The notes beneath the pieces were generated by a model. That model ran no database searches. It had not been told where the DNA came from and saw only the letters and a list, made by a program, of their open reading frames with translations. A DNA stretch of 32,017 nucleotides from a virus: IMG/VR virus record IMGVR_UViG_3300010049_000008, positions 1 to 32,017 of that record; one strand, given 5' to 3'. A program made the translations under genes and the position numbers. Every line of letters starts with the position of its first letter. Positions within the stretch are counted from its first letter, which is position 1. Of this stretch, positions 1-32,017 are shown piece by piece.

Positions 1-123
1 AGTGGCAGAAGCGTTAGAACGCTCATTCATCCAGCACATAAGCCTCCATCAGAATAGATTGTATTATCACATTTTTTGTGATGACCCCTTACAAATGCAG
101 AGTTATCAACAAGAATTAACCAA
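1..123. repeat. Terminal direct repeat, left copy (exactly equals 31895..32017)
   Basis: Compared base by base: agtggcagaagcgttagaacgctcattcat...agttatcaacaagaattaaccaa occurs at both window ends, 123/123 identical. Unit length 31,894 bp. Confidence 0.95.
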
Positions 124-141
124 AGGAGTATACGGAATATA

Positions 142-288
142 ATGGTGCAATTGGACTTTGAGAAGAAACAATTAGTTGAATGCAGACAACTCATCACAAC
201 CTACAAATGCGCTAACTGTGGATATTGGCCTTGCGGGTCATGCAGTTGGAAAAAAACCTTAAATGCCATAGACGGAGTGAAAACTTAA
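142..288 (+). CDS. 48-aa Cys-rich micro-protein (MVQLDFEKKQLVECRQLITTYKCANCGYWPCGSCSWKKTLNAIDGVKT)
   Basis: Below the track cutoff. CxxC...CxxC pattern. TAATG overlaps at both ends (140..144 and 286..290) chain it to its neighbours. Confidence 0.4.
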   Translation: MVQLDFEKKQLVECRQLITTYKCANCGYWPCGSCSWKKTLNAIDGVKT

Positions 289-929
289 TGTATATGTTTA
301 AGGTGGTGCAAAGCACTACTCAAGTAATTTTAGAATATCCAAAATTCCGAGACAAAAACGAAACATATACAAACCCTAATATTATGAGTAAGAAAATAGG
401 TGTTCTACAGTCCTGTAATAATGGTGAGCATATTTGGGATGTGGGAGTTAAATATAAAATTTCCGATGATAAAATGTTGAAGGCGTGCAGAGTTGGATTT
501 CACACTTGCATATATTATCCCATATGGATGCCCCCTTTTCAGGGGAGGGTCTTTATTTGTGAAGTTGAGGAACCTCTTCGTAACTATATTCATCATGGGT
601 TTTCTAAAAACTGGAAACTTGTAAGCCGTACCTGTAAACTCATCACCCGAATATCCCAAAAAGACGCCAACCGCATAATTAGAAGTTGGTTAAAAATAGA
701 TATTATGTTAATCAAACGCAATACTACAATGATGGATATTAGAAGAAGATTGATAAATGGGGAATTAGTCACAGATAAAAGCAGAAAATATTATAATGAA
801 ACATTATCAAGGTATAATCTTCAATCGGCTCAAAATATTCAATTTGTTTTTAAAAACTATTTAACACATAAAGAAAACAAAACATTAGCTCAATGGAGAA
901 AACAACTAAATGAAAGTTTACAATTGTAA
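288..929 (+). CDS. Hypothetical protein, 213 aa
   Basis: Track ORF 225..929. I chose the internal ATG at 288 (MYMFKVVQ...) because it overlaps the stop of the upstream micro-ORF. No family recognised with confidence. Confidence 0.6.
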   Translation: MYMFKVVQSTTQVILEYPKFRDKNETYTNPNIMSKKIGVLQSCNNGEHIWDVGVKYKISDDKMLKACRVGFHTCIYYPIWMPPFQGRVFICEVEEPLRNYIHHGFSKNWKLVSRTCKLITRISQKDANRIIRSWLKIDIMLIKRNTTMMDIRRRLINGELVTDKSRKYYNETLSRYNLQSAQNIQFVFKNYLTHKENKTLAQWRKQLNESLQL

Positions 930-1041
930 ACGATGCGGCAAAACTTATCTCCGCTACCCCGACGGCCAAGACCCCAAAGTAGAAGTTGTAACAGAAACCA
1001 TATGCCCGGAATGTTTCGTAGAAGGTGCCCAAAACTGGTAA
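910..1041 (+). CDS. 43-aa zinc-ribbon-like protein (MKVYNCKRCGKTYLRYPDGQDPKVEVVTETICPECFVEGAQNW)
   Basis: Hand-translated and below the track cutoff. CxxC(22)CxxC pattern. More protein-like than the Arg/Pro-rich N-terminus of track ORF 933..1271 in the other frame. Confidence 0.45.
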   Translation: MKVYNCKRCGKTYLRYPDGQDPKVEVVTETICPECFVEGAQNW

Positions 1042-1064
1042 ACCCATATGATGACCCTGATGTT

Positions 1065-1271
1065 ATGGGGTATTGTCCCCGGTGTGCTAAATATATCCGA
1101 TACCCCGAAAACGTAAAGTATGATAAAATTGGCCGTATGAAATGCCGGATACACCCAGCCCAACAAATGAGACTCAAAACAAACAAAAGCCGAGCAGACG
1201 CACATAAACGCCAATGGGAAAAAGAAAAAGAAAAAAAACAGAAAGCACAACAGGAGAACCCTAACCCATGA
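1065..1271 (+). CDS. 68-aa zinc-ribbon-like protein with basic Lys/Glu tail (MGYCPRCAKYIRYPENVKYDKIGRMKCRIHPAQQ...)
   Basis: Internal ATG (codon 45) of track ORF 933..1271. CxxC...CxxH pattern. Its stop overlaps the next start (ATGA at 1268). Confidence 0.4.
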   Translation: MGYCPRCAKYIRYPENVKYDKIGRMKCRIHPAQQMRLKTNKSRADAHKRQWEKEKEKKQKAQQENPNP

Positions 1272-1486
1272 AAATGGGCTTCAAACAAGTATTCGCCTAT
1301 TGCCAACAATGCCAAAACTGCGCCCCGCACTGTTTCGAGGACTGTACTACATTGTGGAGTCACAGCCGCCGCATAGAACCCCCTCCCACAGTAACCGTTG
1401 TAAATGGGGAATATGTGCGGGTGGATGCAAAAATAATATTAGACTGGACACAATCCCGATCAATAAAACCACTGGAGAAAGTGTAA
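1268..1486 (+). CDS. 72-aa Cys-rich protein (CQQCQNCAPHCFEDC)
   Basis: Track ORF with ATGA overlap to the upstream gene and a dense Cys cluster near the N-terminus. Confidence 0.55.
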   Translation: MKMGFKQVFAYCQQCQNCAPHCFEDCTTLWSHSRRIEPPPTVTVVNGEYVRVDAKIILDWTQSRSIKPLEKV

Positions 1487-1487
1487 C

Positions 1488-1673
1488 ATGAAACATGAAA
1501 TAGTTGTGACACAACGAATGTTGACGATGATGCAGACCCGGGAACTAATAATCCGATGCCGAAAATGTGCTAAAGAAATACATGTCGGGGATGAAATTAC
1601 AAGTTCGCCCACAGGACGCAACTGCACACGAAAATGGTATCACCGCACCTGCTGGAAAGAAATGTTTATCTAA
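1488..1673 (+). CDS. 61-aa zinc-binding-like protein (CRKC...CTRKWYHRTC)
   Basis: Track ORF starting 1 nt after the upstream stop. CxxC plus C/H cluster. Confidence 0.55.
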   Translation: MKHEIVVTQRMLTMMQTRELIIRCRKCAKEIHVGDEITSSPTGRNCTRKWYHRTCWKEMFI

Positions 1674-1704
1674 CCCCCCCCCGTTAACATTGTGAGGAAT
1701 AAAT
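1665..1704 (+). promoter_or_regulatory. Promoter-like element with a C9 tract: TTTATCTAA-CCCCCCCCC-GTTAACATTGTGAGGAATAAAT-ATG
   Basis: A/T box at 1665..1673, homopolymer C9 at 1674..1682, and GAGG 9 nt before ATG 1705. The same CCCCCCCCCGTTA 13-mer occurs on the other strand at 28848..28860, also upstream of a gene. Confidence 0.4.
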
Positions 1705-2242: not shown

Positions 2243-2285
2243 TTTATATATCCGTTTGGTATATGTTAACATGGAGTTAAACAAC
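2243..2285 (+). promoter_or_regulatory. Promoter/operator/leader cassette P1: TTTATATA-N12-ATGTTAACAT-GGAGTTAAACAAC-ATG
   Basis: TATA-like octamer at 2243..2250, 10-bp palindrome at 2263..2272, GGAG, then ATG at 2286. The 49 nt at 2243..2291 are identical to 31310..31358. Confidence 0.6.
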
Positions 2286-2654
2286 ATGACCGTACTAATG
2301 AACTATAAAAAAATTGAACAATCTCATCTTAACCAAATAATAAAAAACATGGAACAACTCGGATACACAGGTAAAGACTACCACACAGCCAAACAACCTT
2401 TCCCCCAAGACAAAAAACTCAGCGGAATACAAAAAGAAAGCTTCAGCTACTCAGTTAATGGCCGTGGAGAATTAATTGACGAAACCGTAAGCCAAATGAC
2501 AATACACTCAGCCGCACAAGGCAAAGTATTAATTTATAATAAAGAATGCTTCGAAATAATAAGCCGCAACGGAAAAGGCATAGAAGCCCAAAGAATAGTA
2601 GAACTCTATCCAAAACGATTTACATGCAAGGTAGTTTTTCGCTACCTCTACTAA
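2286..2654 (+). CDS. Hypothetical protein, 122 aa (MTVLMNYKKIEQSHLNQ...)
   Basis: 3' part of track ORF 2064..2654. Start set at the ATG after the conserved GGAGTTAAACAAC leader. The upstream part of that ORF is antisense to gene 1953..2213 and crosses the promoter. Confidence 0.65.
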   Translation: MTVLMNYKKIEQSHLNQIIKNMEQLGYTGKDYHTAKQPFPQDKKLSGIQKESFSYSVNGRGELIDETVSQMTIHSAAQGKVLIYNKECFEIISRNGKGIEAQRIVELYPKRFTCKVVFRYLY

Positions 2655-2959: not shown

Positions 2960-3002
2960 TTTAAATACTCATAAGCCTATGTAAACATAGGGAAGGAACA
3001 AC
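2960..3002 (+). promoter_or_regulatory. Promoter cassette P6: TTTAAATAC-N7-CCTATGTAAACATAGG-GAAGGAACAAC-ATG
   Basis: TATA-like box at 2960..2968, palindrome at 2976..2991 (7-nt arms), and leader ATAGGGAAGGA shared with the promoters at 24996..25038 and 19763..19809. Confidence 0.5.
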
Positions 3003-3653
3003 ATGAAAAAACAAACCTATGAATACCTAATAGCGGCATTATTAATAACCGCAATAATTTTAGGCATAACAGCTTTTATAATACTTTATCCGTGGGGACA
3101 AGAAACCACACAAGCAAACTGCAACATCACACCCACGGTAAATGTCACAGATGCAGAGTTAGCCGTATATCAACAAGTCAGCCAAGAAACCCGCATGAAC
3201 CACAAAACAAACCCCGCCTATTTCATGCAAAGCAGTCACCCAAAAATAATCGCGCTATGCAAACAATTAAACCAGCAGGGCGTAGACCAAAACCTAACCC
3301 CGGAAGAATTCGCACAATACCTCCTCAACTACGTATACACCGCCATCCAATATGCAGAAGACAAAGACACAACCCCCTACAACGACTACTACAATTTTCC
3401 CATAGAAACCTTAGCCCTCGGCTATGGCGACTGCGAAGACACCGCAATGCTCTACATGACCCTTTTAGATTACTTCAATTATGACTATTGTGCTTTCATA
3501 ACCAACACCCACTATTTTGTGGGTATAGCTGGAAACTTTAGCGGCAACCAAATAAACGGATACTACTATGCAGACACAACAACATACAACTATATTATCG
3601 GTAATCCGGTGGTACAAATAGAGGGAGAAAGAGTATGGCAATACTACCCTTAG
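3003..3653 (+). CDS. Signal-anchored transglutaminase-like (papain-fold) cysteine peptidase; candidate lysin
   Basis: N-terminal TM segment (YLIAALLITAIILGITAFIILY), then LALGYGDCEDTAMLYMTLL (the G-x-C-x-D core motif of transglutaminase-like enzymes), a later HYFVGI (His) and YYADTT (Asp). Confidence 0.65.
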   Translation: MKKQTYEYLIAALLITAIILGITAFIILYPWGQETTQANCNITPTVNVTDAELAVYQQVSQETRMNHKTNPAYFMQSSHPKIIALCKQLNQQGVDQNLTPEEFAQYLLNYVYTAIQYAEDKDTTPYNDYYNFPIETLALGYGDCEDTAMLYMTLLDYFNYDYCAFITNTHYFVGIAGNFSGNQINGYYYADTTTYNYIIGNPVVQIEGERVWQYYP

Positions 3654-3820: not shown

Positions 3821-6800
3821 TTAAGAGTTAGCTAACTTAGATATTAGTTTTTCGAGTGCCTCAACTCTTCGAGTCAATATTTGAATCGTGTCTTTCTCCT
3901 TATCCACTCGCCCCCAATATTGTAATAATTCGCCGTCATCACTATACATAGCTAAGTCACGCTCAATTTCAGTCATGCGCACATCATTTTCAAAGACCAA
4001 GTCACCGGGGGTAATGGTTACGGCACGCACAAGGCTAAATCTGTTTCCGTTCTGGCCTATAGTGCCGCTGTTATCATTTTTCGGAACAATAGAACCCGTT
4101 ATGGCAATGTTCCCGTAAGAACTACCATTATTATAATTCAACAACACATCATAATCACCAAGGCCGCCGGAAGATAACGAGGTGCCGTTAGCTTTCAGCC
4201 ACATCGTACCCTGACCGCTCGCATACACAGAAGCATTACCCGTATCAGTAGAATAGCCGGATGCAAACCCATAGTTGCCAAAGGCTGTTATTCCGTTGCC
4301 TGTGAAAGCTCCTAATACGCCCGAGTTAGCGCCTACGCCGCCTGCATTCATAGTCCAGTAGTAGAGGGGATTGTATCCGGGGAAATACCAGAGATAAGAG
4401 GGTGCAGTGTAATTTTGGCCTATCGCCGCTGTGAAATTAATAACGGTATTACTGCTGTCAAAACCTATGGTTCCTTGCTGATTTCCGCTCCCGTCCACAA
4501 AACGCAGTGATTGGCCAAATATTGAGATGCCGTTACTTGCTATATTGGCGAATGGGCTTACTAAGCCGTTTGCGCCTATGCTCATAGTTCCCGCGCCGAA
4601 AGTGCCTTTTCCAGTAGAAATATCAATGTAGAATTGTCTGACTTGGGCGCTGTCAAAGCCTGCGATGCCGCCGCTGTCGATAACTATTTCGTTGCCGCCG
4701 CCCCCGGGAGGCATAATAAACATTCCGTTTCTATTCATTGTAATTGACCCATTTGCAAAATAAGCATTACCATTAGATGCATCTATGTAAAATGAAGGTT
4801 GACCGCTTGAATTATAACCGCTTAAACCATTGCCATCTAATTTCAAAAATGGTGTTACATATCCATTTCCTATGTTGCCGTTTGAGAAGTCGAGGCGGCC
4901 GTTAGCATCGACGCCGTAAATGCTGAGTTGCCCGGCGTGTATTTGGCCTGCCATGAGTGCAAGGTTTAGGGTGCCGCATAATGTCCATACGTTTAAGCCT
5001 GTGATGGGGTCAGGTTCAGCGAAGTAATACGCTTGGGTGTCTGTGGCATAAAACATAGCGCCCTGTGAGACTGTGTCAGGTGCAGGTTTTTCAGCATCTA
5101 ACCCAAACAACAACACACCAAACCCCTGCATACTACCTATCAAATCTTCCAACGGAATATTTTTCAGGGTCTCAAAAGTGATACCACCGCGAACTTGGAT
5201 TCCGTTTACTTGTGTTGACCCGTTGCCTACCATCTGCCCGGTAATGTCTTGCAGTAACCGCATTTGCTGAGGTATGGCCACATCAAGTTCCACAGTTACC
5301 ATTGATGGGGTTTTAGTAATGCGTTTAATTTGAAAGCCGTCTGTATCAGATATGAAATCTAAGTCAGGACGATTAACAACAATAAACTGCCCCGCCCGCA
5401 TCATATACGTCTGATGTAACAAAGCATTAAGAGAGTTCCCGTTTGCGGAGGGATTGCTTAGACGTGTCCAAAGAAATTTGGCCATAGTATTTAGAGTATC
5501 TATGTCTGCGGCGTTAGGATTTTGATAAACTTTTACGGCCCCTGTTTTTACTGCTGGATATTGACCCATGATTAAGGTCTGTTCTTCGTCGGTTCCGCTT
5601 CCCCAAACTTGTACCGTCCCGATAACTTTGGATTCGTCTTTCGTTGTGTGTGACCCTGACTGCCAAAGTGGAGACTCATATAATGTTGAGCTACGGTAGC
5701 CTATGTTTATTTGGCCGTTTGCAGGCCAATAATCTAAACCAAGAACCGCCGCTAACTTTTGCACCGCCGTCAATGCATTTTCTTCGTTGAACGCGATTGA
5801 TACGGGTGTAGTAGGACATTGACCCGCGGATATATTGAGCGCTTGAGCCGCTATATGCTGCAGAATAAGGTTAGCGGGGGTTTGATCGAATGCTCTTGTT
5901 ATTGTGTTAACTGCTTTGTAGAGGTAATTTAGGACAGGGTCGAATAAACCACAAGTAATACGCGTACTATTAATATCACGTGATAACAACACACCCTGAA
6001 ATACTATAACGTCATTATATGTTAATTGAAAACTTTGACCCTGAACCGATTGCACAAACGCTAAAGCCGCCGGAGTATTAACTGTTGCAATTGTAGCTGA
6101 TAAGTTCCCGCCCGCTTCGCCCATTTCATCAAGGATTTCAATCCAATCAAATTGAAACGGAGGAGCTACATAAGCGGAACCATTCCAATAATTAACTCGT
6201 GGTTTTCCAGTGGAAGTTAACGGGGGAGTAATACGTGGACGCCAAACAGCATATAATGTTACGGGCGCAGTGCCCATAGCGAAGCTTGGAGGAGTAACCG
6301 TGTTATCAATATTCACTTTGAAGGTTGATAATGAGGCTAACGGATTGAAGTCCCAGCCGTCTAAACCATATTCCAGTATAGCCAAGTTTCCCGTATTACC
6401 TATAACGCTGACCGTTGCAAATTGGAAATATTCGTTAGGGTCTACTGGTACAGTACCCGTATAAGTTGTGCCAGATGGGGGATTAGCCGCATAAGTTACT
6501 CCAAATGATTCTTGCCAAACCGCATTAAGTGTGATATTAGCCGCTCCAATTATGAATGATGAAGGAGCTACTGTGATGCCGTCGGTTTGAATTCTGAATG
6601 AGGGGCTGTTAAGTTCTCCGGGTAAATCCCACCCAATAACCTTGTAACCCGTAGTATTGAGGTTGTTTGGGTTTGCTTGCACGGTTACGCTATCAGTTGA
6701 CCTGTACAGATTATTATCTACTGGTACTGACCCGGTTAGGGTGGTGCCTGCAGGGGGATTAGGCGCATAAGTTACGGTGTAGAGTTGTTGCCATACTGCG

Positions 6801-8452
6801 TATAGTGTAGTATTCGCGGCGGGGCTGGTGAACGTTGACGGGGTTACGGTTGAGCCGGACACCGCAAAATCAGGGGTGACCGCTGACGCAGAAAAAGCCC
6901 AGCCGAGATAGAGAAAGGGAACCGCTTGCAGATTGCCCGTATTCGCTAATACTGTTACGGGGTCGCCTGCATAGTAAGTGTTGCTATCCGTGGGTACGGT
7001 TCCGCTTGTGCTGGTTGCAGTACTGGGAAAGTTAGCGTTATATGTTACTGTTCGAGGTGTTGTGTCATGATACCAGACTGCATATAATTGCACATTGTTA
7101 GCGGGCATACTCATAGTCGGAGGTGTTGTGCCTGACCCAGATAAAGTAAATGTGGGAGTTGTTGCAGATGGATTTGTATCCCACCCCAACATTTGATAAG
7201 GCGGCGCGGTTAGACTTCCGGTGTTGCCTTGAATTGTGACCGATTCACCCGCTATATACACATTAGCATCAGTTGGCACATTTCCTCCTGTGCTGGTTGC
7301 GTCTGAAGGAAAATTAGCATTATAACCGATAGTAAATAACTGTTGCCATACTGCGTATAAAGTAACGTTAGCATTACCCATTGTAAAACTTGATGGAGTT
7401 ACAACGGTTCCGTTACTGCTAAAGGCAAATGTTGCTGTGGTGGCGCTTGGATTTGTATCCCAACCTAACAAGCGGTAGCCCATGCGGGCAAGATTTCCCG
7501 TATTCGCCGCAACTGGAACCGCCCATCCCGGCTCATATAAATTATTGTCAACGGGAACGGTTCCCGTTAATCCGGGGCCGATGGGTGCATTAGCATTATA
7601 TGTTACGGTATAGGTAGGAGTGACTTGCCATATCATGTATAAGGTGGTTGTAGTGGGGTTGGCTACGGTTGGAGCAATAAAGCTCGGAGGAGTAACCGTA
7701 TCATTAGGGCCAAAAACATAAGTTGGCACGGAAGCATTAGCCGTTGTTGCCCACCCTAACGGGGTATGATGAGGAATAGCTAAGTTCCCACTATTGGGCG
7801 CAATATACACAGTATCTCCTGCGAAATATTGGTTTGAGTCTTGGGGAACGGTGCCTGTGACGTTTCCAGCTTGACCGGCGGGGGCATTTACGTTATAAAC
7901 TACGGTTTGAGGGATTTTATATGCGTATATTCGAAACTTCCAGTTTATTGAAGATACTATCGGTGAGCCACTGTCCGTACCGCCGACCAGAGGCACGCCT
8001 GAACCACCAGCATTAAACGAGGTGAAACTGCGCCCATTATAATTCACATCATTTATCCCGTTGGAATTTCGTTCAATATCGAGAGTAGTGGCCAAGCTTG
8101 TTGAACGGGATAGCACCCAGACATATGTTTTAGCAGGGTCAAGATAAAAATCGGCTGATAAGGTGAAATCAACCCAGCCCATAGTAGTGTTTACTTGTAA
8201 CTGGGTAACGTTTGCGGGGCCAGCTAAATAACTGCCGATTGGCAGTCTTGTGGTGAGATTGGCTTCTTGGAGATAAAGTGAAATGTTGCCGTTGAATGCG
8301 GCGTTTCGTTTCATGGAAAGGGAAACTCTTCGAATATTCTTTCCATTACCCTGAAACGATGTGCCCAAAATATAATTTAATCCAAAATCCCAATTTTGGG
8401 TTGCTGTTCCTGTATCTGTACTGTTATCAATTATAACTTCATAAAAACTCAT
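3821..8452 (-). CDS. Tail tip / Tal-like baseplate hub fused to receptor-binding fibre, 1543 aa
   Basis: Follows TMP and Dit in the canonical order. It has an N-terminal beta-rich domain (aa 1-180), six ~90-aa tandem repeats (aa 182-738), a hub-like middle region, a Gly/Asn/Ser-rich fibre region and a C-terminal coiled coil (TRRVEALEKLISKL). Confidence 0.85.
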   Translation of the reverse strand: MSFYEVIIDNSTDTGTATQNWDFGLNYILGTSFQGNGKNIRRVSLSMKRNAAFNGNISLYLQEANLTTRLPIGSYLAGPANVTQLQVNTTMGWVDFTLSADFYLDPAKTYVWVLSRSTSLATTLDIERNSNGINDVNYNGRSFTSFNAGGSGVPLVGGTDSGSPIVSSINWKFRIYAYKIPQTVVYNVNAPAGQAGNVTGTVPQDSNQYFAGDTVYIAPNSGNLAIPHHTPLGWATTANASVPTYVFGPNDTVTPPSFIAPTVANPTTTTLYMIWQVTPTYTVTYNANAPIGPGLTGTVPVDNNLYEPGWAVPVAANTGNLARMGYRLLGWDTNPSATTATFAFSSNGTVVTPSSFTMGNANVTLYAVWQQLFTIGYNANFPSDATSTGGNVPTDANVYIAGESVTIQGNTGSLTAPPYQMLGWDTNPSATTPTFTLSGSGTTPPTMSMPANNVQLYAVWYHDTTPRTVTYNANFPSTATSTSGTVPTDSNTYYAGDPVTVLANTGNLQAVPFLYLGWAFSASAVTPDFAVSGSTVTPSTFTSPAANTTLYAVWQQLYTVTYAPNPPAGTTLTGSVPVDNNLYRSTDSVTVQANPNNLNTTGYKVIGWDLPGELNSPSFRIQTDGITVAPSSFIIGAANITLNAVWQESFGVTYAANPPSGTTYTGTVPVDPNEYFQFATVSVIGNTGNLAILEYGLDGWDFNPLASLSTFKVNIDNTVTPPSFAMGTAPVTLYAVWRPRITPPLTSTGKPRVNYWNGSAYVAPPFQFDWIEILDEMGEAGGNLSATIATVNTPAALAFVQSVQGQSFQLTYNDVIVFQGVLLSRDINSTRITCGLFDPVLNYLYKAVNTITRAFDQTPANLILQHIAAQALNISAGQCPTTPVSIAFNEENALTAVQKLAAVLGLDYWPANGQINIGYRSSTLYESPLWQSGSHTTKDESKVIGTVQVWGSGTDEEQTLIMGQYPAVKTGAVKVYQNPNAADIDTLNTMAKFLWTRLSNPSANGNSLNALLHQTYMMRAGQFIVVNRPDLDFISDTDGFQIKRITKTPSMVTVELDVAIPQQMRLLQDITGQMVGNGSTQVNGIQVRGGITFETLKNIPLEDLIGSMQGFGVLLFGLDAEKPAPDTVSQGAMFYATDTQAYYFAEPDPITGLNVWTLCGTLNLALMAGQIHAGQLSIYGVDANGRLDFSNGNIGNGYVTPFLKLDGNGLSGYNSSGQPSFYIDASNGNAYFANGSITMNRNGMFIMPPGGGGNEIVIDSGGIAGFDSAQVRQFYIDISTGKGTFGAGTMSIGANGLVSPFANIASNGISIFGQSLRFVDGSGNQQGTIGFDSSNTVINFTAAIGQNYTAPSYLWYFPGYNPLYYWTMNAGGVGANSGVLGAFTGNGITAFGNYGFASGYSTDTGNASVYASGQGTMWLKANGTSLSSGGLGDYDVLLNYNNGSSYGNIAITGSIVPKNDNSGTIGQNGNRFSLVRAVTITPGDLVFENDVRMTEIERDLAMYSDDGELLQYWGRVDKEKDTIQILTRRVEALEKLISKLANS
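6239..7909 (-). repeat. Six tandem ~90-aa coding repeats resembling Listeria-Bacteroides (Flg_new / InlB B-repeat) domains
   Basis: Each unit reads like TVTYNAN..TGTVP.D.N.Y..G..VTV..NTGNL...GY..LGW.T.......F.......TP..F......V.LYAVWQ. Units end at LYMIW, LYAVW (x4) and LNAVW. An identical 19-mer TGTTGCCATACTGCGTATA occurs at 6786..6804 and 7341..7359. Confidence 0.7.
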
Positions 8453-24643: not shown

Positions 24644-24646
24644 AAG

Positions 24647-24661
24647 TATAACAGTGTTATA
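24647..24661 (-). promoter_or_regulatory. 15-bp perfect palindrome TATAACACTGTTATA 3 nt upstream of ATG 24643 (second copy at 11013..11027)
   Basis: The plus strand reads tataacagtgttata at both loci. An adjacent second palindrome, ATATAACC-N5-GGTTATAT, lies at about 24668..24688. Confidence 0.5.
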
Positions 24662-24689
24662 ATAGTCATATAACCGTTATGGTTATATA

Positions 24690-24995
24690 CTACAATACTT
24701 TCAAAACAACATCAGAAACAAGCGTTATTATCATAACAGCCAACCCAGCAACGACTAATTTAAGTTCTTGACTAATTTTCTTATCATGTTGAACCATCAC
24801 CCCCAAACTAATTTTTATCTCCGTTAATTCTTTTGCGAGGGGGCCGTTCATGTTGTCTTCTATTTTCGAAATTCGGTTAGAAGTTTCTTCACATTTACGA
24901 TTAAAATCGGGTATAAAGTGTCTTTGGAAAAAGTTTGAGTGACTCTTTAGCTCTACAACTGAGCGTTCTACAGCATCTATTCTTGTTTCTGTCAT
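24690..24995 (-). CDS. 101-aa coiled-coil protein with C-terminal membrane anchor
   Basis: Track ORF ending in LKLVVAGLAVMIITLVSDVVLKVL, with its own promoter. Confidence 0.6.
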   Translation of the reverse strand: MTETRIDAVERSVVELKSHSNFFQRHFIPDFNRKCEETSNRISKIEDNMNGPLAKELTEIKISLGVMVQHDKKISQELKLVVAGLAVMIITLVSDVVLKVL

Positions 24996-25038
24996 ATCCT
25001 TCCCTATACATTTCAGGGAATAAAAGCTTATAAATAAA
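24996..25038 (-). promoter_or_regulatory. Promoter cassette P7: TTTATTTATAA-N..-ATAGGGAAGGAT-ATG (TATA start 43 nt from the ATG)
   Basis: Same 43-nt TATA-to-ATG spacing as P1/P3/P6, and the same ATAGGGAAGGA leader as P6. Confidence 0.45.
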
Positions 25039-25255: not shown

Positions 25256-25609
25256 TTAATCCCTCTCAGTTAAGTTAGTTTTGTCATAATTGAAACGTAC
25301 ACTGCTTATTCGGCTTTCTATACCTGCAATACGTCTATTTAATTCACCTATATACAGGTCAAGTTCTACACCATCTTGGATTAGGTAATATCCATTAGAG
25401 GTTGCTCCTATGGGCAGATAGGTATGTTTAATCAGGAATCGGATGTAGCTTCTTGTTTTGGGATTGGCTTCGCCGTCGTTTATGTCAAGTTTTTCTGCTA
25501 TCTCGGTGCTGGTTATAGGGTTATCTTTTCCGGCGTGTTGTACAAGTAAGTTTTGAAGCTGTCTCAATGTTTGGCCGTCTAAACGGTGTTTAGTTCCTTT
25601 TTTGTTCAT
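25256..25609 (-). CDS. Winged-helix (HTH_11/BirA-like) transcription regulator, 117 aa
   Basis: NPITSTEIAEKLDI...KTRSYIRFLIKHTYLPIGATSNGYYL is a typical wHTH, followed by a helical tail. Start set at the ATG after the conserved leader. Confidence 0.65.
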   Translation of the reverse strand: MNKKGTKHRLDGQTLRQLQNLLVQHAGKDNPITSTEIAEKLDINDGEANPKTRSYIRFLIKHTYLPIGATSNGYYLIQDGVELDLYIGELNRRIAGIESRISSVRFNYDKTNLTERD

Positions 25610-25652
25610 GTTGTTTAACTCCATGTTAACATATACCAAAGTAGTATTTAAA
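25610..25652 (-). promoter_or_regulatory. Promoter cassette P3: TTTAAATAC-N11-ATGTTAACAT-GGAGTTAAACAAC-ATG
   Basis: 35 nt (25606..25640) are identical to P1/P2. TATA-like box at 25644..25652 and palindrome at 25623..25632. Confidence 0.55.
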
Positions 25653-28252: not shown

Positions 28253-28834
28253 TTATGCTCCCGGAAAAGTAACTTTCAAATCCTCAGCGTGCCCGGTAAA
28301 TATAAAAGTTCGTTCATGTTTTTCGGTTAAGTTGTCTGCGCATACTTTTATGGTTACCCAGAAAGTTTTCTCCTTTTCACTCTCAGACAACAGAGTCAAG
28401 GTTTTTTCTTCAGGTATGGCGGGTTCTGCTTTAGCTTTTGTTTTTGCTTCATTGAAAACTTGAATAACCTCTTTTCCCACAATATAGGGTTTAATTTTAG
28501 GATATTCTTTGATAACTTTTTTCACTATTTCAAAATATCCTAATTCAGAATCAACCAATTCTTTTATACGTGCCCAATATTTAACTTCATACATACAAGT
28601 TTCAACATTCATTTGGCACCATTGATTAGAAACAGTTTTACCCGTAATCATACAATAACCCACTACGTCATCCGCTGAAAGCTTCACAGCACACGGAATT
28701 TCCGTGCTTATATTTTCGGGATAAGTTTCTTTTTTCTCTTCGGTTATGGGGATTTCTACGGTTGGTTTATCCTCTTTTTTTGGGGTGGGTGGGATACAGG
28801 TTTTACAATTCGTTTTAATTTTGGTTTCAGTCAT
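28253..28834 (-). CDS. Hypothetical protein, 193 aa; first gene of the leftward arm
   Basis: Track ORF 28253..28843 trimmed to ATG 28834 (MTETKIKTNCKTC...). It has a Lys/Glu/Pro-rich N-terminus and several Cys. No family recognised. Confidence 0.6.
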   Translation of the reverse strand: MTETKIKTNCKTCIPPTPKKEDKPTVEIPITEEKKETYPENISTEIPCAVKLSADDVVGYCMITGKTVSNQWCQMNVETCMYEVKYWARIKELVDSELGYFEIVKKVIKEYPKIKPYIVGKEVIQVFNEAKTKAKAEPAIPEEKTLTLLSESEKEKTFWVTIKVCADNLTEKHERTFIFTGHAEDLKVTFPGA

Positions 28835-28872
28835 GTTGACCACACCATAACGGGGGGGGGAACATAAATAAA
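28835..28872 (-). promoter_or_regulatory. Leftward promoter-like element with a C9 tract: TTTATTTAT-GTT-CCCCCCCCC-GTTATGGTGTGGTCAAC-ATG
   Basis: A/T box at 28864..28872 (minus strand) and G9 on the plus strand at 28852..28860. Same CCCCCCCCCGTTA as at 1674..1686. Confidence 0.4.
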
Positions 28873-29144: not shown

Positions 29145-29400
29145 ATATTTTAGCTCTAAGGGGCGAGCGTCATCGTTGAGGGATAGCTTCAGCCGTTAAT
29201 CATAGCGGGCTTGGAGGCCCGTTCTTATAGCGCAAGCGGCAACTCACTATCACTTATTTCGACTTGACTGATAGCCCGGTTCATATGTGGACACTATCAG
29301 CCATTCCCGACAATCCGGCAGGGATTGACGAGCTTAACCAAGATACTTTCAGCGGTAACCGTCACAAGCCTTACGAGGGCAAGCCGTCATTACATGATTT
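29145..29400. ncRNA. Candidate structured non-coding RNA (visibly G+C-richer island inside the control region)
   Basis: Local hairpins: AGCGGGC/GCCCGTT (29204..29223), CTGATAG/CTATCAG (29268..29300) and CAATCC/GGATTG (29310..29326). TTTATAA at 29114..29120 could serve as a TATA box for plus-strand transcription. Strand and ends are unknown. Confidence 0.2.
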
Positions 29401-29567
29401 CTCTATATCTGCACTCCTACGCAAATAGTAAGTTTGCGTTAATTGCCACAATTGATTAAGCATACCCTAATAGGTGAAAGTCATAATTAAAGTTATCTGA
29501 AATCAACCAAAACAACATTTTTGTTGTAGAGGCAAAGTTTCCGTTTTTCTATTCAACCAATGACTTA

Positions 29568-29610
29568 GGGTTAACGGGGTTAAAGAGGTTTAACCCCGTA
29601 AGGGGTTTTT
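29568..29610 (+). promoter_or_regulatory. Cluster of GGGGTTAA boxes forming two mutually exclusive hairpins
   Basis: H1 pairs ACGGGGTTAAA (29574..29584) with TTTAACCCCGT (29589..29599). H2 pairs AACCCC (29592..29597) with GGGGTT (29602..29607) around a GTAA loop, followed by a T run. Confidence 0.5.
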
Positions 29611-29841
29611 GAGTATTATAGTTTAGCGTTTTTTAGAGGGAGAAAAAGAAAAGTTAAGAAAGTTAAAGTTATTAATAGTATATATACTACTACTATCTAC
29701 ATTTACTTTTACTTTTACTTACAAGTAATACAATCGATACTTACACAACATCATATTTAAGGCTTTCCCAACAAACAATCAGGTGATTAGGGTGGATTTT
29801 TGGGTGCTGGAAAAAGTGTTTTATTGTTTTTCGCTTAGAAA

Positions 29842-29868
29842 GTTTAACCCAGTTAACCCCGTTAACCC
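29842..29868. repeat. Three tandem GTT(T)AACCC(C) boxes, inverted relative to the 29568..29584 boxes
   Basis: GTTTAACCC a GTTAACCCC GTTAACCC. Together with the upstream G-strand boxes they bracket a ~230-bp A/T-rich stretch containing (TTTTAC) repeats. Confidence 0.7.
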
Positions 29869-29930
29869 TGTTTGGTTGTTGTAGTTAGTTGCAATATTCT
29901 AAAAGTTATTCAACTAAAGTTTAATCTATT

Positions 29931-30018
29931 GTTAAACATGTTAAAGGTTGTGCAAAAGGTTAAGATGTTAAACATGTTAAAGGTTGTGCAAAAGGTTAAG
30001 ATGTTAAACATGTTAAAG
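29931..30018. repeat. 36-bp tandem direct repeat, 2.4 copies (iteron/operator-like)
   Basis: gttaaacatgttaaaggttgtgcaaaaggttaagat occurs at 29931..29966 and 29967..30002, both identical, with a partial third copy at 30003..30018. Each copy contains the AACATGTT palindrome. The array abuts the TATA box at 30019. Confidence 0.9.
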
Positions 30019-30063
30019 TTTATTAATGTGAGTGCAGTAAAGTCTATTATGGAGTTAAACAAC
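30019..30063 (+). promoter_or_regulatory. Rightward promoter P4: TTTATTAAT-N21-ATGGAGTTAAACAAC-ATG (opens an 11-codon uORF)
   Basis: It shares the 18-nt leader ATGGAGTTAAACAACATG with P1-P3. The ATG at 30064 encodes only MTTNKRNYLWL, which overlaps the real start at 30090. Confidence 0.5.
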
Positions 30064-30089
30064 ATGACTACAAACAAGAGGAATTATTT

Positions 30090-30697: not shown

Positions 30698-30999
30698 TGG
30701 TGCAAATTATTTTCGAGGGTAGAACTCATAGGGAAGTAAACTTAGCAATAAGCGACTTCTTTGATGCAGAAAATAACCAACAGAGAAGTCTGCGACGGCT
30801 TGAACAGGCGAAGTTGGAGCAACATATTTTTGATTTAATTCTTATGGATAATTCACAGATTGAAAAATCTTCAATTCCATCAATATTAAACCGATTATAT
30901 TCGATTAAAGCCGTGGATGTGTTGCAGGCAATTATACAGTTAAGTATTGATGGAAAAATCAGCATTTCTATAGCTGGAGGCTTAAAAGTTGAGTGTTGA
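30697..30999 (+). CDS. Hypothetical protein, 100 aa (possible wHTH at the C-terminus)
   Basis: Track ORF with TAATG overlap to the upstream gene and GGAG 11 nt upstream. Confidence 0.55.
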   Translation: MVQIIFEGRTHREVNLAISDFFDAENNQQRSLRRLEQAKLEQHIFDLILMDNSQIEKSSIPSILNRLYSIKAVDVLQAIIQLSIDGKISISIAGGLKVEC

Positions 31000-31153
31000 A
31001 AGAATTTTCTCGGAGACTTACCTAAAAGGCCTGACGTGGATAAAATTACTAAATCTCAAAGCAGGTTATGAGTGCCAGCGGTTATTGCCTCCTCCAGAGA
31101 TCCAAGAGGAAATAGCGCGGAGAATAGGTGAGATAAATGGCAAAACAAGATAA
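30989..31153 (+). CDS. Possible 54-aa ORF with TTG start
   Basis: Hand-translated (LSVERIFSETYLKGLTWIKLLNLKAGYECQRLLPPPEIQEEIARRIGEINGKTR). GGAGG 8 nt upstream. It fills an otherwise empty gap and overlaps both neighbours. Confidence 0.25.
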   Translation: MSVERIFSETYLKGLTWIKLLNLKAGYECQRLLPPPEIQEEIARRIGEINGKTR

Positions 31154-31307
31154 GATAATCTGTATGTTCTGTGGGAAAGAAATAAGCGAATACACTCGGG
31201 TAACTATCACGTATAACAAGAAAACTTCGATATTGTTCACGTGCCCCAAGTGCCAGCAGGGTTATTATAGCGGGGGTTCACTCGATGACCCTCCCACATC
31301 ACCCTAA
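31137..31307 (+). CDS. 56-aa zinc-ribbon micro-protein (MAKQDKIICMFCGKEISEYTRVTITYNKKTSILFTCPKCQQGYYSGGSLDDPPTSP)
   Basis: Hand-translated and below the cutoff. CxxC(23)CxxC pattern, with GGTGA 5 nt upstream. Confidence 0.5.
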   Translation: MAKQDKIICMFCGKEISEYTRVTITYNKKTSILFTCPKCQQGYYSGGSLDDPPTSP

Positions 31308-31309
31308 CT

Positions 31310-31352
31310 TTTATATATCCGTTTGGTATATGTTAACATGGAGTTAAACAAC
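31310..31352 (+). promoter_or_regulatory. Promoter/operator/leader cassette P2 (identical to P1)
   Basis: 31310..31358 equals 2243..2291 (49/49). TATA at 31310..31317 and palindrome at 31330..31339. Confidence 0.6.
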
Positions 31353-31526
31353 ATGACCAGCACAGAACAATACAGAATAATAAACCGATTAACAACAGTA
31401 TGGGAAGAATTAGACGAACTACAACAAAGCCTATACCAGAAAGAACGCGACCAAATAATAGAGGCTAAAGTAGCGGTTGACAAAATTCTCAAAACCTTAA
31501 CAACCAACGACCACTATATAGAGTGA
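31353..31526 (+). CDS. 57-aa helical protein (MTSTEQYRIINRLTTVWEELDELQQSLYQ...)
   Basis: Track ORF 31323..31526 trimmed to the ATG after the conserved leader. Confidence 0.55.
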   Translation: MTSTEQYRIINRLTTVWEELDELQQSLYQKERDQIIEAKVAVDKILKTLTTNDHYIE

Positions 31527-31531
31527 ACAAC

Positions 31532-31861
31532 ATGCGACTAAACAATAAAGCAGACATAAAATATACTAAATCCCCACTAATTTTCAAAGAAATTACCGAA
31601 AGAGCAGAGAAAGGATTAGTACACGTCTACTTAAGAGACTCTTACTATAGTGATAAGTGTGGTGCACTTATCGCGACATTTAACAAAAAAGAAACACATG
31701 TGAAAACACTAACAGTATACCATGAAACTATAGGAAACAAACATCATAGTGTAGGGTTGCAAATGGTGAATAAACGAGATAACAGTCTTGTTTGTATTTG
31801 GGTTTTAGATAATTATAATGAGGAGAATACTCCATCTGAGGTGTGCTGTAGTGCACCGTGA
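31532..31861 (+). CDS. Hypothetical protein, 109 aa
   Basis: Track ORF 31523..31861 (GTG) trimmed to the ATG in the AACAACATG context. Confidence 0.6.
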   Translation: MRLNNKADIKYTKSPLIFKEITERAEKGLVHVYLRDSYYSDKCGALIATFNKKETHVKTLTVYHETIGNKHHSVGLQMVNKRDNSLVCIWVLDNYNEENTPSEVCCSAP

Positions 31862-31886
31862 GCTACACACCAGATACTTAGCTACT

Positions 31887-32017
31887 ATGCGTATAGTGGC
31901 AGAAGCGTTAGAACGCTCATTCATCCAGCACATAAGCCTCCATCAGAATAGATTGTATTATCACATTTTTTGTGATGACCCCTTACAAATGCAGAGTTAT
32001 CAACAAGAATTAACCAA
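31887..32017 (+). CDS. Small ORF crossing the junction (49 aa, MRIVAEALERSFIQHISLHQNRLYYHIFCDDPLQMQSYQQELTKGVYGI); finishes at TAA 140..142 in the left copy
   Basis: ATG at 31887. The frame stays open through the repeat, and its TAA overlaps the next ATG (TAATG at 140..144). No family recognised. Confidence 0.3.
   Translation, partial: MRIVAEALERSFIQHISLHQNRLYYHIFCDDPLQMQSYQQELT
31895..32017. repeat. Terminal direct repeat, right copy (exactly equals 1..123)
   Basis: Same 123-nt string as 1..123. The window stops exactly at the end of the overlap, as expected for a circular or circularly permuted contig written with redundant ends. Confidence 0.95.

Follow-up and report, generated by a model that had tools for sequence, protein, structure and literature searches.

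Genome organization and virion genes

The window (the whole stretch of DNA that was analysed, 32,017 nt) comprises 31,894 unique bp plus a 123-bp direct terminal repeat, which marks it as a complete genome, either circularly assembled or terminally redundant. The same virus is also recorded in ENA assembly ERZ27264051, as a 31,884-bp contig. The structural module had been described in the first-pass annotation as orthodox, and so it is: TerL, portal, adaptor, neck, and tape measure proteins match known families, and an HK97 fold was modelled for a 348-aa protein. With no sheath gene recognised, a long, noncontractile tail is probable. The features other than promoters are as follows.

1..123 (no strand), terminal repeat, left copy; exact identity with 31895-32017
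3003..3653 (+), transglutaminase-like cysteine protease, 216 aa; Pfam Transglut_core, 25.5 bits versus a 23-bit cut-off
3821..8452 (−), large distal tail/receptor-binding candidate, 1543 aa; next after the tape measure gene; internal repeats of ~93 aa
8867..10477 (−), tail tape measure protein, 536 aa; several tape-measure PHROGs; 72% identity to L042
11626..12096 (−), neck/tail-completion protein; phrog_5, E = 2e-12
12485..13687 (−), head-tail adaptor/connector, 400 aa; phrog_442, E = 1e-14
14271..15317 (−), major capsid protein (MCP), HK97 fold, 348 aa; AF2 model, Foldseek, and family profile
15397..16698 (−), scaffold-like protein, 433 aa; directly upstream of the MCP gene; repeats D1/D2
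20141..20863 (−), MuF-like head morphogenesis protein, 240 aa; phrog_4728
20863..22458 (−), portal, 531 aa; weak Phage_portal and phrog portal matches; homologs at 39-48% identity
22462..23910 (−), large terminase subunit (TerL), 482 aa; phrog_38, E = 1e-81; Pfam Terminase_6C
25256..25609 (−), 117-aa protein, directly after an early-type cassette; assessed by sequence motif and helix pattern
29150..30060 (no strand), noncoding hub of ~900 bp between divergent gene blocks; repeats, GTTAA/TTAAC pentamers
31895..32017 (no strand), terminal repeat, right copy; exact identity with 1..123

The AF2 model of the MCP (pLDDT 75) matched hundreds of HK97-type capsids at probability 1.0 in Foldseek. PF25209 was matched by 7 of the 21 MCP family members, and the sole PDB sequence match of the family profile was the archaeal virus HFTV1 (MCP 8qpq, E = 2e-10). 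Among 50,697 deposited phage/virus records, neither MCP nor portal found a meaningful match. The scaffold-like protein, which has a long Glu/Lys-rich low-complexity segment (15758-16074), is kept in L042, L157, L158, L159, and L162, and the L042 and L158 homologs of the MuF-like protein match Phage_Mu_F. The gene for the 1543-aa protein carries direct repeats D4, D6, and D13 at 276- to 282-nt spacing; the protein is 32% identical to its L042 counterpart and gave no match in family searches (PHROG, Pfam).

The transglutaminase-like protein has a predicted N-terminal membrane helix and is a candidate for envelope action, lysis, or entry. The 117-aa protein is a candidate winged-helix DNA-binding regulator; against the PDB its only matches, histone H1 and a transcription regulator, were nonsignificant, and its AF2 model was unusable. 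Paired CxxC motifs are present in small on-strand ORFs, as previously noted, but these putative zinc-ribbon genes number ~12-13 rather than ~15, a content only suggestive as an archaeal argument.

Promoter types and their positional constraint

Three types of putative promoter were distinguished.

2243..2288 (+), early-type cassette: TTTATATA (2243-2250), palindrome core TGTTAACA (2264-2271), GGAG, AACAAC, ATG at 2286
31310..31355 (+), early-type cassette: ATG at 31353; 100% identity to the 2243 copy across 49 nt
25607..25652 (−), early-type cassette: TTTAAATA at 25652-25645, ATG at 25609; inverted repeat I2, 90%; would drive the 117-aa putative winged-helix protein
19763..19812 (+), early-type cassette, diverged: TTTATATA, TGCTATAT, palindrome ATATGTAAACATAT, GGAAG, ATG at 19810, 47 nt from the box
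2960..3005 (+), early-type cassette, diverged, without TGGTATAT: TTTAAATA, TATGTAAACATA, GGGAAGG, ATG at 3003, 43 nt; D17
19641..19691 (−), cassette divergent from the 19763 one: TTTAAATA, TGTAAACA, TTAAACAAC-ATG at 19643; downstream, a mini-ORF of 6 codons, its stop codon overlapping the ATG (19626) of a 295-aa ORF
24993..25038 (−), promoter: TTTATTTA 43 nt 5′ of the ATG at 24995; GGGAAGG leader
30019..30066 (+), promoter bordering the repeat hub: TTTATTTAA-type box TTTATTAA, then ATGGAGTTAAACAAC-ATG at 30064; next, an 11-codon mini-ORF with an overlapping ATG at 30090
28832..28872 (−), promoter-like site: TTTATTTA 38 nt 5′ of the ATG at 28834; C-run, then GTTA
11489..11496 (−), late-type T/A box TTTTTTAA(CTTC), 40 nt 5′ of the ATG at 11456 (tail-tube-position gene); D15
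15355..15362 (−), late-type T/A box TTTTTTAA(CTTC), 45 nt 5′ of the MCP ATG at 15317; D15
16733..16740 (−), late-type T/A box TTTTTAAA(CTTC), 42 nt 5′ of the scaffold-like gene ATG at 16698
11010..11039 (−), third type (leaderless spacing): TTTTATTT from 30 nt 5′ of the ATG at 11009, palindrome TATAACAcTGTTATA between box and ATG; D9
24644..24673 (−), third type, second copy: TTATATGA from 30 nt 5′ of the ATG at 24643, palindrome TATAACAcTGTTATA; D9

The first-pass annotation had drawn attention to TTTAWATA-type octamers at 43 nt (twice 47-48 nt) from start codons, followed by a GGAG or GGGAAGG element. Spacing and leader element were both recovered: a TATA-like octamer starts exactly 43 nt 5′ of the ATGs at 2286 (+), 3003 (+), 31353 (+), 25609 (−), and 24995 (−), with distances of 47 nt at 19810 (+), 48 nt at 19643 (−), 45 nt at 30064 (+), and 38 nt at 28834 (−), and the element lies between box and ATG. 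What is nonrandom is the position of the octamers but not their number, since TTTAWATA is not over-represented (9 observed versus 8.3 ± 3.2 expected) and TTTAWWWA, at 27 versus 40, tends if anything toward depletion. In 11 to 12 of 21 nonredundant upstream regions (two near-duplicate cassettes taken out), the best TATA-like octamer fell within an 11-nt band at −38 to −48 (rotation null, P = 0.0003 to 0.006). Three of the −43 sites are not independent, being near-identical copies of 45 nt, and because the cassettes share ancestry their constant spacing is in part inherited. An A at −3 from the box is present in 8/10 sites (P = 0.0013) and fits the expectation for a BRE; the BRE G at −6 is not conserved (2/10).

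The extended −10 (TGnTATAT, TGGTATAT/TGCTATAT) is, as suspected, not general, being confined to four box sites (2243, 31310, 25652, and 19763). A conserved −35/−10 pair was likewise missing, with no −35 and no enrichment of sigma-70 promoters in a search of the genome. The hairpins followed by oligo-T runs proposed earlier did not hold up: intrinsic-terminator-like sites were at chance level (12 versus 13.2; 15 versus 16.1), and T5+ runs followed 7/25 unit ends and A5+ runs 6/25, so the enrichment is not strand-specific.

Strict box-A octamers occupied −28 to −50 in 13/19 cases in clade viruses and Bathyarchaeia loci (P = 7e-5), compared with 3/11 (not significant) in the bacterial outgroup. 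The Bathyarchaeia chromosome has canonical boxes 39-40 nt 5′ of host genes; a crude genome-wide A/T profile 5′ of Bathyarchaeia genes gave no sharp TATA peak. A BRE, TTTAWATA, and virus-specific flanks common to many small early genes have been described for archaeal viruses (PMC11065993), the same architecture as that of the window.

Palindromes and the noncoding hub

The early-type cassettes carry a palindrome with a TGTWAACA core, a motif found in cassettes only, centred 24.5 nt after the box start, just 5′ of the predicted start site. The hub contains 2.5 perfect 36-bp tandem repeats (29930-30018), inverted repeats (29567-29594/29842-29869), and 23 GTTAA/TTAAC pentamers versus 3.3 expected, and matched no family in an Rfam search. 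It is a candidate replication origin and regulator-binding hub.

Terminase and head-module relatives

Relatives of TerL and MCP and integrated copies had been proposed as a check on the host, and the outcome was contrary to a bacterial assignment. A TerL search of 185,579 species-representative (GTDB) genomes gave 38 loci, the top 11 of which all belong to Bathyarchaeia MAGs (41-50% identity, E 1e-95 to 1e-122). They include copies on the closed 3.05-Mb chromosome OY970340.1 and on 100-330 kb contigs that have cellular genes in the flanks. The next-best matches were bacterial (≤32% identity). In a neighbor-joining tree the window TerL was bracketed by Bathyarchaeia copies within a long-stem clade, outside which lay the remaining archaeal copies, from Pacearchaeota, Iainarchaeum, and Thermoplasmata MAGs (26-36% identity). 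At BLAST sensitivity, TerL is all that the Bathyarchaeia chromosomal proviruses have in common with the window. TerL varies among viruses with a common head module: neither L157 nor L158 has an equivalent of the one in L159.

Across the portal-scaffold-capsid module, the window shows 35-47% identity with two contigs, one from an NCBI Bathyarchaeia MAG and the other bearing Type IV-B/CysH. The portal is 42% identical to MEM3617897.1, annotated as "[Candidatus Bathyarchaeia archaeon]," from L158, a 30-kb contig that could be viral and binned into the MAG. Portal, MCP, scaffold, and adaptor are common to the window, L158, L159, L157 (a provirus in a 339-kb contig without host assignment), and L162. 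L159 carries Csf3, a weak Csf1, a weak RAMP, and a strong PAPS-reductase; the combination of Type IV-B and CysH is a reported hallmark of "Fuxiviridae," a Bathyarchaeia virus family assigned by spacers (PMC10848311), which L159 resembles in this module, its own membership not being established. By homology, two separate modules, TerL and the head genes, lead to Bathyarchaeia. The tetranucleotide signature, also proposed as a host check, leaned the same way but weakly (0.42 versus 0.27), with overlapping ranges.

TerL, head module, capsid affinity, and promoters together support the suggestion of an archaeal virus, from which we infer the host. The window is quite probably the complete genome of a long-tailed, HK97-capsid Caudoviricetes virus with an archaeal host, which most likely belongs to the Bathyarchaeia, and its lineage is probably new at the family level. 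The virus usefully extends a group known since its first description in 2024, though it has precedents.

Proposed transcription and alternative readings

The virus encodes no recognisable RNA polymerase and would therefore be transcribed by the archaeal machinery of its host. TBP/TFB would bind the BRE (purine-rich, A at −3/−4) and the TATA box (TTTAWATA or T-rich variants), with the transcript starting ~30 nt past the first base of the box; at most promoters the box lies 38-48 nt 5′ of the ATG, which would leave a 10- to 18-nt leader with an anti-16S motif (GGAG, GGGAAGG, or GGTGA). Early-type cassettes are predicted to drive small ORFan and zinc-ribbon genes, their TGTWAACA palindrome lying in a position from which an archaeal repressor would keep polymerase from being recruited. 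At the two leaderless-type promoters, with the box 30 nt 5′ of the ATG, a different palindrome would cover the start site, and TTTTTTAACTTC-type boxes would serve the putatively late scaffold, capsid, and tail-tube operons. The GTTAA half-site massively repeated in the hub may most simply be read as a platform for one virus-encoded regulator and/or a replication origin.

That the virus is instead a bacteriophage, its cassettes being a sigma-70 extended −10 (TGGTATAT) plus a Shine-Dalgarno leader, TTTAWATA a UP-like element or a chance A/T-rich spacer, and the links to Bathyarchaeia a product of horizontal exchange of structural genes or of mis-binning, seems very unlikely. The TGnTATAT of four cassettes does predict roughly the same start site as the archaeal reading, SD-like motifs precede 39 of 56 genes, the distant TerL relatives occur in many bacterial MAGs, TerL is exchangeable between relatives, and some bacterial loci equal the Bathyarchaeia ones in tetranucleotide correlation. 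However, the diverged cassettes (2960, 25038, 19691, 30019, and 28872) keep box and spacing without the extended −10, there is neither a −35 nor sigma-70 enrichment, and at promoters of the third type the end of TGTTATAAT lies 2 nt 5′ of the ATG, which would place a bacterial start site inside the ORF, without a nearby alternative start. Moreover, the nearest genome-resident relatives of both modules are found only in Bathyarchaeia, on contigs of up to 3.05 Mb, sequence matches of the MCP profile in the PDB comprise an archaeal virus but no phage, and family searches of the genome's proteins recognised no peptidoglycan hydrolase or holin. Another archaeal lineage of the same sediments or soils, with structural genes drawn from a pool that viruses of several archaeal groups have in common, is an unlikely host. 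Every host link does rest on homology at 39-50% identity, the closest capsid of known structure belongs to a haloarchaeal virus, TerL modules are mobile between relatives, and distant copies exist in the other archaeal MAGs; yet these fall outside the clade, whose genome-resident members (11/11), like the sole named portal homolog, are Bathyarchaeia, and the Type IV-B/CysH-bearing relative matches the spacer-assigned family.

Quite unlikely, too, is that the cassettes are mainly binding arrays for a virus-encoded factor (a replication/partition protein or virus-specific transcription factor), with TTTAWATA no TBP site and the distance to the ATG inherited through duplication of a 45-nt unit. 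Three cassettes are indeed near-identical, others share submodules (D3, D17), the hub repeats the GTTAA half-site 23 times, and the total TTTAWATA count is at chance. But box and spacing persist where the surroundings have diverged (2960, 25038, and 28872) and recur in the unrelated late-type and leaderless-type promoters, the sequences 5′ of the box vary between copies while the A at −3/−4 is retained, and canonical boxes lie at similar distances in relatives and in the Bathyarchaeia chromosome. The two roles are compatible, and the operator part of the cassette is probably such a binding site.

Genome organization and virion module

The first and last 123 bases of the window are identical, and the sequence therefore represents a complete genome, either circularly assembled or terminally redundant, with a unique length of 31,894 bp. 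ENA assembly ERZ27264051 also contains this virus, as a contig of 31,884 bp. The genome is ~90% coding, with ~56 genes; no integrase was recognized and no tRNA genes were found in the window, and an Rfam scan of it matched no family. The virion module lies on the minus strand, from ~24.3 kb down to 3.8 kb.

Virion module genes of the window, with the basis of assignment
Position in virion module, minus: small protein at the TerS position, assigned by position
22462-23910, minus: TerL; phrog_38 (E = 1e-81), Terminase_6C above the Pfam cut-off, PDB terminases (E = 1e-16)
20863-22458, minus: portal; weak Phage_portal and phrog matches, conserved position beside the terminase gene
After the portal, minus: MuF-like protein
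Before the MCP gene, minus: scaffold-like protein, 433 aa, Glu/Lys-rich
14271-15317, minus: major capsid protein (MCP); AlphaFold model, Foldseek-type fold matches, family profile
After the MCP, minus: adaptor; phrog_442
Within the module, minus: neck protein; phrog_5
After the MCP, minus: tube-position gene(s), assigned by position
Within the module, minus: tape measure, 536 aa; tape-measure PHROGs
End of the module, minus: distal tail protein, 1543 aa

The portal scored 28.7 bits, under the 39.1-bit Pfam cut-off, and its homolog P0091 has a precomputed PF04860 assignment. The MCP by itself had no family match. An AlphaFold (AF2) model built from a 21-member alignment (pLDDT 75, pTM 0.71) gave 355 PDB matches at E ≤ 0.001, with HK97-type capsids on top at probability 1.0, and the protein is thus modeled as having the HK97 fold. 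Four traits of Caudoviricetes were examined and are present in the window, i.e., an ATPase-nuclease-type terminase, a portal beside the terminase gene, an MCP of predicted HK97 fold, and a tail module. The first-pass annotation had described an orthodox HK97/siphovirus structural module and was correct in this, as TerL, portal, HK97-fold MCP, adaptor, neck, and tape measure are all represented. No tail sheath had a family match among the window genes, which is negative evidence only.

The 1543-aa tail protein had no family matches. Its gene contains diverged direct repeats at 6282-7704 (families D4, D6, and D13) spaced by 276 to 282 nt, or ~93 aa, which suggests tandem Ig-like or similar domains of a receptor-binding protein. 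A GAA/GAG-type low-complexity tract at 15758-16074 encodes the Glu/Lys-rich part of the 433-aa scaffold-like protein. The head module is split by a block of small genes (17223-20007), with the MuF-like gene on one side and the scaffold and MCP genes on the other; among its genes are a 295-aa ORFan, several ORFs of the CxxC zinc-ribbon type, and, on the plus strand, a gene (19810-20007) preceded by a separate promoter cassette. A comparable gap with Cys-rich ORFs inside is found in the head module of L042, a relative from the same sample. Genome-wide, zinc ribbons were somewhat fewer than the ~15 originally counted, with paired CxxC motifs in ~12 to 13 on-strand small ORFs. The haloarchaeal zinc-finger families HVO_2753_ZBP and DUF7479 were considered as Pfam identities and set aside, their scores being under the curated cut-offs.

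A transglutaminase-like cysteine protease is encoded at 3003-3653; it is membrane anchored, carries a GYGDCEDTA motif, and matches Pfam Transglut_core above the cut-off. Family scans recognized neither a peptidoglycan hydrolase nor a holin anywhere in the genome. The protease could be an envelope-degrading, lysis, or entry enzyme.

Terminase relatives in Bathyarchaeia chromosomes

The window TerL is at most 28% identical to those of known phages. A single-sequence query against species genomes returned no match, and an alignment of the TerL family was needed as the query; scanned against one genome per species (185,579 species), it detected 38 loci. The best 11 of these (41 to 50% identity) were all in Bathyarchaeia metagenome-assembled genomes (MAGs), including a closed 3.05-Mb chromosome (OY970340.1) and contigs of 103 to 327 kb, while the best bacterial locus was 32% identical. 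In a neighbor-joining tree, the window TerL fell inside a long-stem clade with the Bathyarchaeia copies in sister and deeper subclades and all bacterial copies outside; every genome-resident member of the clade (11/11) was from Bathyarchaeia. Ordinary cellular genes flank the TerL copies on the long contigs, and these copies are therefore chromosomal. The search for integrated relatives that the first-pass annotation had proposed thus led to Bathyarchaeia genomes, among them a closed chromosome.

At BLAST sensitivity, the Bathyarchaeia chromosomal proviruses share TerL alone with the window. A possible correspondence between the window MCP family and the capsid of one of them, L001, was examined by profile comparison and no relationship was found, so that TerL is all this provirus has in common with the window. 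Possible integration sites are a tRNA-Asn gene (L007, 1674-1750) and a tRNA-Leu gene (L012, 4969-5056), each located a few kilobases from the TerL-bearing provirus region of a Bathyarchaeia MAG contig.

A second line of evidence from the head module and capsid

Nineteen portal homologs were found in 5.8 billion protein clusters. One of them, 42% identical, is NCBI MEM3617897.1, annotated as "MAG: ... [Candidatus Bathyarchaeia archaeon]." On its contig, L158 (GCA_038872395.1), counterparts of the window portal, scaffold, MCP, adaptor, and MuF-like genes are present at 35 to 42% identity. The portal (45%), MCP (47%), scaffold, and MuF-like genes are also shared by a viral contig, L159. A provirus, L157, carries this head module too; it lies in a 339-kb contig whose flanking genes gave no clear taxon. 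L162 is a further IMG/VR relative with the head module. The head module is a second host indication, independent of TerL.

No counterpart of the L159 TerL was detected in L157 or L158 at E < 1e-5, and its alignment to the window TerL is marginal (23% identity, E = 0.004). As TerL differs among viruses that share the head module, the genome is mosaic, with TerL and head modules both pointing to Bathyarchaeia. Evidently, Bathyarchaeia-associated virus lineages have exchanged the terminase gene.

For the MCP family, the sole sequence-level match among 177,635 PDB sequences was the gp5-like MCP of the haloarchaeal virus HFTV1 (E = 2e-10), the only sequence-matched solved structure, which also ranked 3 to 4 in the fold search. 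HFTV1 has a long non-contractile tail, an architecture that is probable for the window virus as well; the two differ in host, and MCP identity in the structural alignment is only ~13%. The comparison with deposited viruses was made with MCP and portal only: tblastn of both proteins yielded no useful match in 50,697 deposited records of phages and viruses, and no deposited archaeal virus.

In the collections searched, which comprise billions of proteins, L042 alone is related to the window genome-wide. Its portal, MCP, and tape measure are 48%, 54%, and 72% identical to those of the window, and the tetranucleotide profiles correlate at r = 0.84. Both viruses occur together in metagenome assembly ERZ27264051; they are related viruses of one habitat and presumably of one host population. 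As a k-mer host signal, the tetranucleotide profile of the window agrees with Bathyarchaeia, but weakly and with overlapping ranges. Short-match blastn across ~120 loci gave no spacer-like matches besides the L042 homology.

The original interpretation as an archaeal virus is supported by the TerL and head-module relatives in Bathyarchaeia, the HFTV1 capsid match, and the positions of BRE/TATA elements (see below). On these sequence comparisons, an archaeal host appears very probable, and Bathyarchaeia are its likely, if somewhat less secure, identity.

Relationship to known viruses of Bathyarchaeia

Bathyarchaeia are among the most abundant archaea of anoxic sediments and soils. To our knowledge they are essentially uncultured and none of their viruses has been isolated; their virome was reportedly first outlined in 2024, from metagenomes. 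The window provides a complete, compact genome of a Bathyarchaeia-linked lineage.

Archaeal Caudoviricetes are already established, as are tailed viruses and proviruses of Bathyarchaeia (PMC10848311, PMC11705971); the same holds for the BRE/TATA cassettes of archaeal viruses (PMC11065993). The known groups comprise the head-tailed "Fuxiviridae" and "Kunpengviridae" (Duan et al. 2024, PMC10848311) and the tailed proviruses BATPV (PMC11705971). Like these, the window is a member of Caudoviricetes with an HK97 MCP, portal, and TerL, and its TerL relatives are integrated in Bathyarchaeia chromosomes. Both Fuxivirus (31,982 bp) and the window (31,894 unique bp) are small for archaeal tailed viruses. 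"Fuxiviridae" are reported to carry a combination of Type IV-B CRISPR-Cas and CysH, as well as Cas4, and were assigned to Bathyarchaeia by spacer matches (PMC10848311). In L159, a winged-helix gene, a weak Csf1, a weak RAMP/Cas7-like gene, a Csf3, and a strong PAPS-reductase (CysH-like) gene follow in a row at 1876-5473; these genes form a Type IV-B-like module such as has been described for "Fuxiviridae" (PMC10848311), here on a viral contig whose head module is 45 to 47% identical to that of the window.

Virus-borne Type IV-B CRISPR-Cas was the one defining "Fuxiviridae" trait tested, and it was not recognized in the window: unlike in "Fuxiviridae," no Csf, RAMP, PAPS-reductase, or Cas4 match was found in the 39 window proteins scanned against Pfam. 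The window TerL also belongs to another family than the TerL of the head-module relatives. Moreover, the host of "Fuxiviridae" was assigned by spacers whereas that of the window is assigned by homology, and the link to Fuxivirus runs through L159 only. The window probably represents a new family-level lineage. Current views are not overturned, as archaeal HK97-capsid tailed viruses with BRE/TATA promoters were to be expected; what the window adds includes evidence of mosaicism, its terminase and head module tracing to different Bathyarchaeia-associated virus groups.

TATA-like boxes at conserved distances from start codons

The archaeal TATA box consensus is TTTAWATA, as written in PMC11065993. 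The first-pass annotation had reported octamers of this type at fixed spacing from start codons; the spacing of 43 or 47 to 48 nt was reproduced, but the abundance of the motif is at chance. TTTAWATA occurs 9 times in the window against 8.3 expected, and the looser TTTAWWWA 27 times against 40 expected. The signal is thus one of position, not abundance. The distance from the octamer start to the ATG is 43 nt for the start codons at 2286, 3003, 31353, 25609 (minus), and 24995 (minus), 47 nt for 19810, 48 nt for 19643 (minus), 45 nt for 30064, and 38 nt for 28834 (minus). Six of the boxes upstream of genes are exact TTTAWATA and four have one mismatch; those at 2243, 31310, and 25652 lie in near-identical copies of 45 to 49 nt. 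After two of these three copies were dropped, 21 upstream regions remained, of which 12 had their best TATA-like octamer in the 11-nt band from -38 to -48 (rotation null P = 0.0002 to 0.0003), or 11 with conservative start-codon choices (P = 0.006).

The sequence immediately upstream of the boxes varies among copies, yet A is found at -3 in 8/10 sites (P = 0.0013) and at -4 in 7/10, with a purine at -2 in 8/10 and G at -6 in 2/10. TFB prefers a purine-rich BRE directly upstream of the box, with A at -3 and G at -6 (PMC11065993). The A at -3/-4 would correspond to this BRE feature; the G at -6 is not conserved.

Bacterial-type signals gave no comparable pattern. The first-pass annotation had noted the absence of a conserved -35/-10 pair and of an extended -10 common to all sites, and both points held: sigma-70-type pairs occur at expected frequency (41 against 42.4 expected; 38 against 34.4), TGGTATAT/TGCTATAT is confined to four cassettes, and TGnTATAT is present in 4 of the 10 box-bearing sites. 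Sigma-70-type promoters and intrinsic terminators were at chance level in both genome halves. Hairpins followed by oligo-T had also been listed as a feature of the genome; since the T-runs after unit ends are not strand specific, and with intrinsic terminators at chance, this point is unsupported.

Relatives gave modest support for the box positions. Strict box-A octamers were found at -28 to -50 in 13/19 clade-virus and Bathyarchaeia loci (P = 7e-5) versus 3/11 in the bacterial outgroup, a modest contrast (Fisher P = 0.057). Canonical boxes lie 39 to 40 nt before several host genes and the provirus capsid gene in a Bathyarchaeia chromosome, and at 42 to 45 nt in L042 and L159. An A/T profile of the regions preceding crudely called genes, in loci of Bathyarchaeia, clade viruses, and bacteria, was uninformative.

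Promoter classes, candidate operators, and the noncoding hub

The boxes fall into three classes. The early-type cassettes, at least six (repeat families D3, D17, I1, and I2), precede small ORFan genes whose proteins are unrelated to one another. In these, a palindrome with the core TGTWAACA is centered 23.5 to 24.5 nt after the box start, and TGTTAACA is the candidate operator; on the plus strand, TGTWAACA occurs in cassettes only. A late-type class, missing from the first-pass annotation, consists of TTTTTTAACTTC / TTTTTAAACTTC boxes 40 to 45 nt before the scaffold, capsid, and tail-tube-position genes. In the third class, before the genes at 11009 (minus) and 24643 (minus), the start of a T/A box is 30 nt away from the ATG, i.e., at leaderless spacing, with the palindrome TATAACAcTGTTATA between box and ATG. 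Leaders with GGAG or GGGAAGG were found as previously described, and SD-like 4-mers precede 39 of the 56 genes.

The pentamer GTTAA/TTAAC is concentrated in the 921-bp noncoding hub at 29150-30070 (23 against 3.3 expected). Inverted repeats and 2.5 perfect copies of a 36-bp repeat (TGTTAAACATGTTAAAG...) lie in the hub as well. In IMG/VR, the 16-nt core of the cassette (GGAGTTAAACAACATG) had 33 single-copy matches, judged to be chance because none of the matched records has a protein closely matching one of the window. A 117-aa protein (25256-25609) is encoded immediately after the 25652 cassette and is a candidate regulator, a putative winged-helix protein; its PDB sequence matches were nonsignificant and its AF2 model reached a pLDDT of 43.

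Similar arrangements are known from SIRV2 and other rudiviruses and the SSV T6 operons, in which a highly similar regulatory sequence precedes many small early genes (PMC11065993). It comprises a purine-rich BRE, a TTTAWATA box, and virus-specific flanks thought to bind a virus-encoded regulator, and such cassettes drive anti-defense genes in Sulfolobus viruses (PMC11065993). The window likewise has at least six such cassettes before small unrelated ORFan genes. However, SIRV2 and SSV are Sulfolobales viruses of other realms with mostly leaderless transcripts, whereas the window is a tailed virus with a predicted SD-bearing leader of 10 to 18 nt, and its candidate operator is, unlike theirs, a TGTWAACA palindrome also iterated in the hub. 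No Aca8 homolog was recognized in the window.

A proposed scheme of transcription and regulation

No RNA polymerase was recognizable among the window genes, so that the host TBP, TFB, and RNA polymerase would use the BRE/TATA boxes. In archaeal core promoters the box is centered near -26/-27 relative to the transcript start. Initiation is thus predicted ~30 nt downstream from where the box begins, at its first T, which would yield leaders of 10 to 18 nt in most units, carrying GGAG, GGGAAGG, or GGTGA-type motifs, and leaderless transcripts in two. The early-cassette palindrome would sit just upstream of the predicted start site. In the simplest model, a virus-encoded regulator would bind the palindrome/GTTAA sites, repress or time the cassettes, and mark the origin region.

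The division of promoters into early and late and the anti-defense role of the cassette genes are inferences. A fuller scheme, which we offer as speculative and rather doubtful, is that one virus-encoded DNA-binding protein recognizes GTTAA-type half-sites both in the palindromic operators over the start sites of at least six strong BRE/TATA early cassettes and in the 23-site hub, which probably would hold the replication origin, thereby coupling early transcription to replication in a virus of Bathyarchaeia; the ORFan and zinc-ribbon genes behind the cassettes would then form an early anti-defense battery, as in Sulfolobus viruses. If so, the cassettes would provide Bathyarchaeia with their first usable promoter parts that are both strong and regulatable. 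More generally, the BRE/TATA boxes, operator palindromes, and SD leaders would give a concrete picture of transcription signals in Bathyarchaeia, and the shared cassettes mark a short list of candidate early or anti-defense genes.

Start codons and leader features

An alternative to the SD-leader reading is a leaderless transcript translated from an upstream ATG (MELNNM...). The ATGGAGTTAAACAACATG cassettes have such an in-frame ATG 28 nt after the box start; diverged cassettes are without it.

Cassettes with an upstream ATG
2271-2288: upstream-ATG cassette
31338-31355: upstream-ATG cassette
25607-25624, minus: upstream-ATG cassette
30049-30066: upstream-ATG cassette

Behind two of the cassettes, a mini-ORF comes first in place of the long ORF. 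One (19626-19643, minus) has 6 codons (MMNVKT), its stop overlapping the ATG of the 295-aa ORF (ATGA); the other (30064-30099, plus) has 11 codons (MTTNKRNYLWL) and overlaps the ATG at 30090. They could serve in translational coupling or as leader peptides.

CCCCCCCCGTTA occurs twice in the window against 0.01 expected, at 1675-1686 (plus) and 28848-28859 (minus). So long a homopolymer run of C is unusual. The start codons at 1705 and 28834, respectively, follow ~20 to 25 nt downstream of the two copies.
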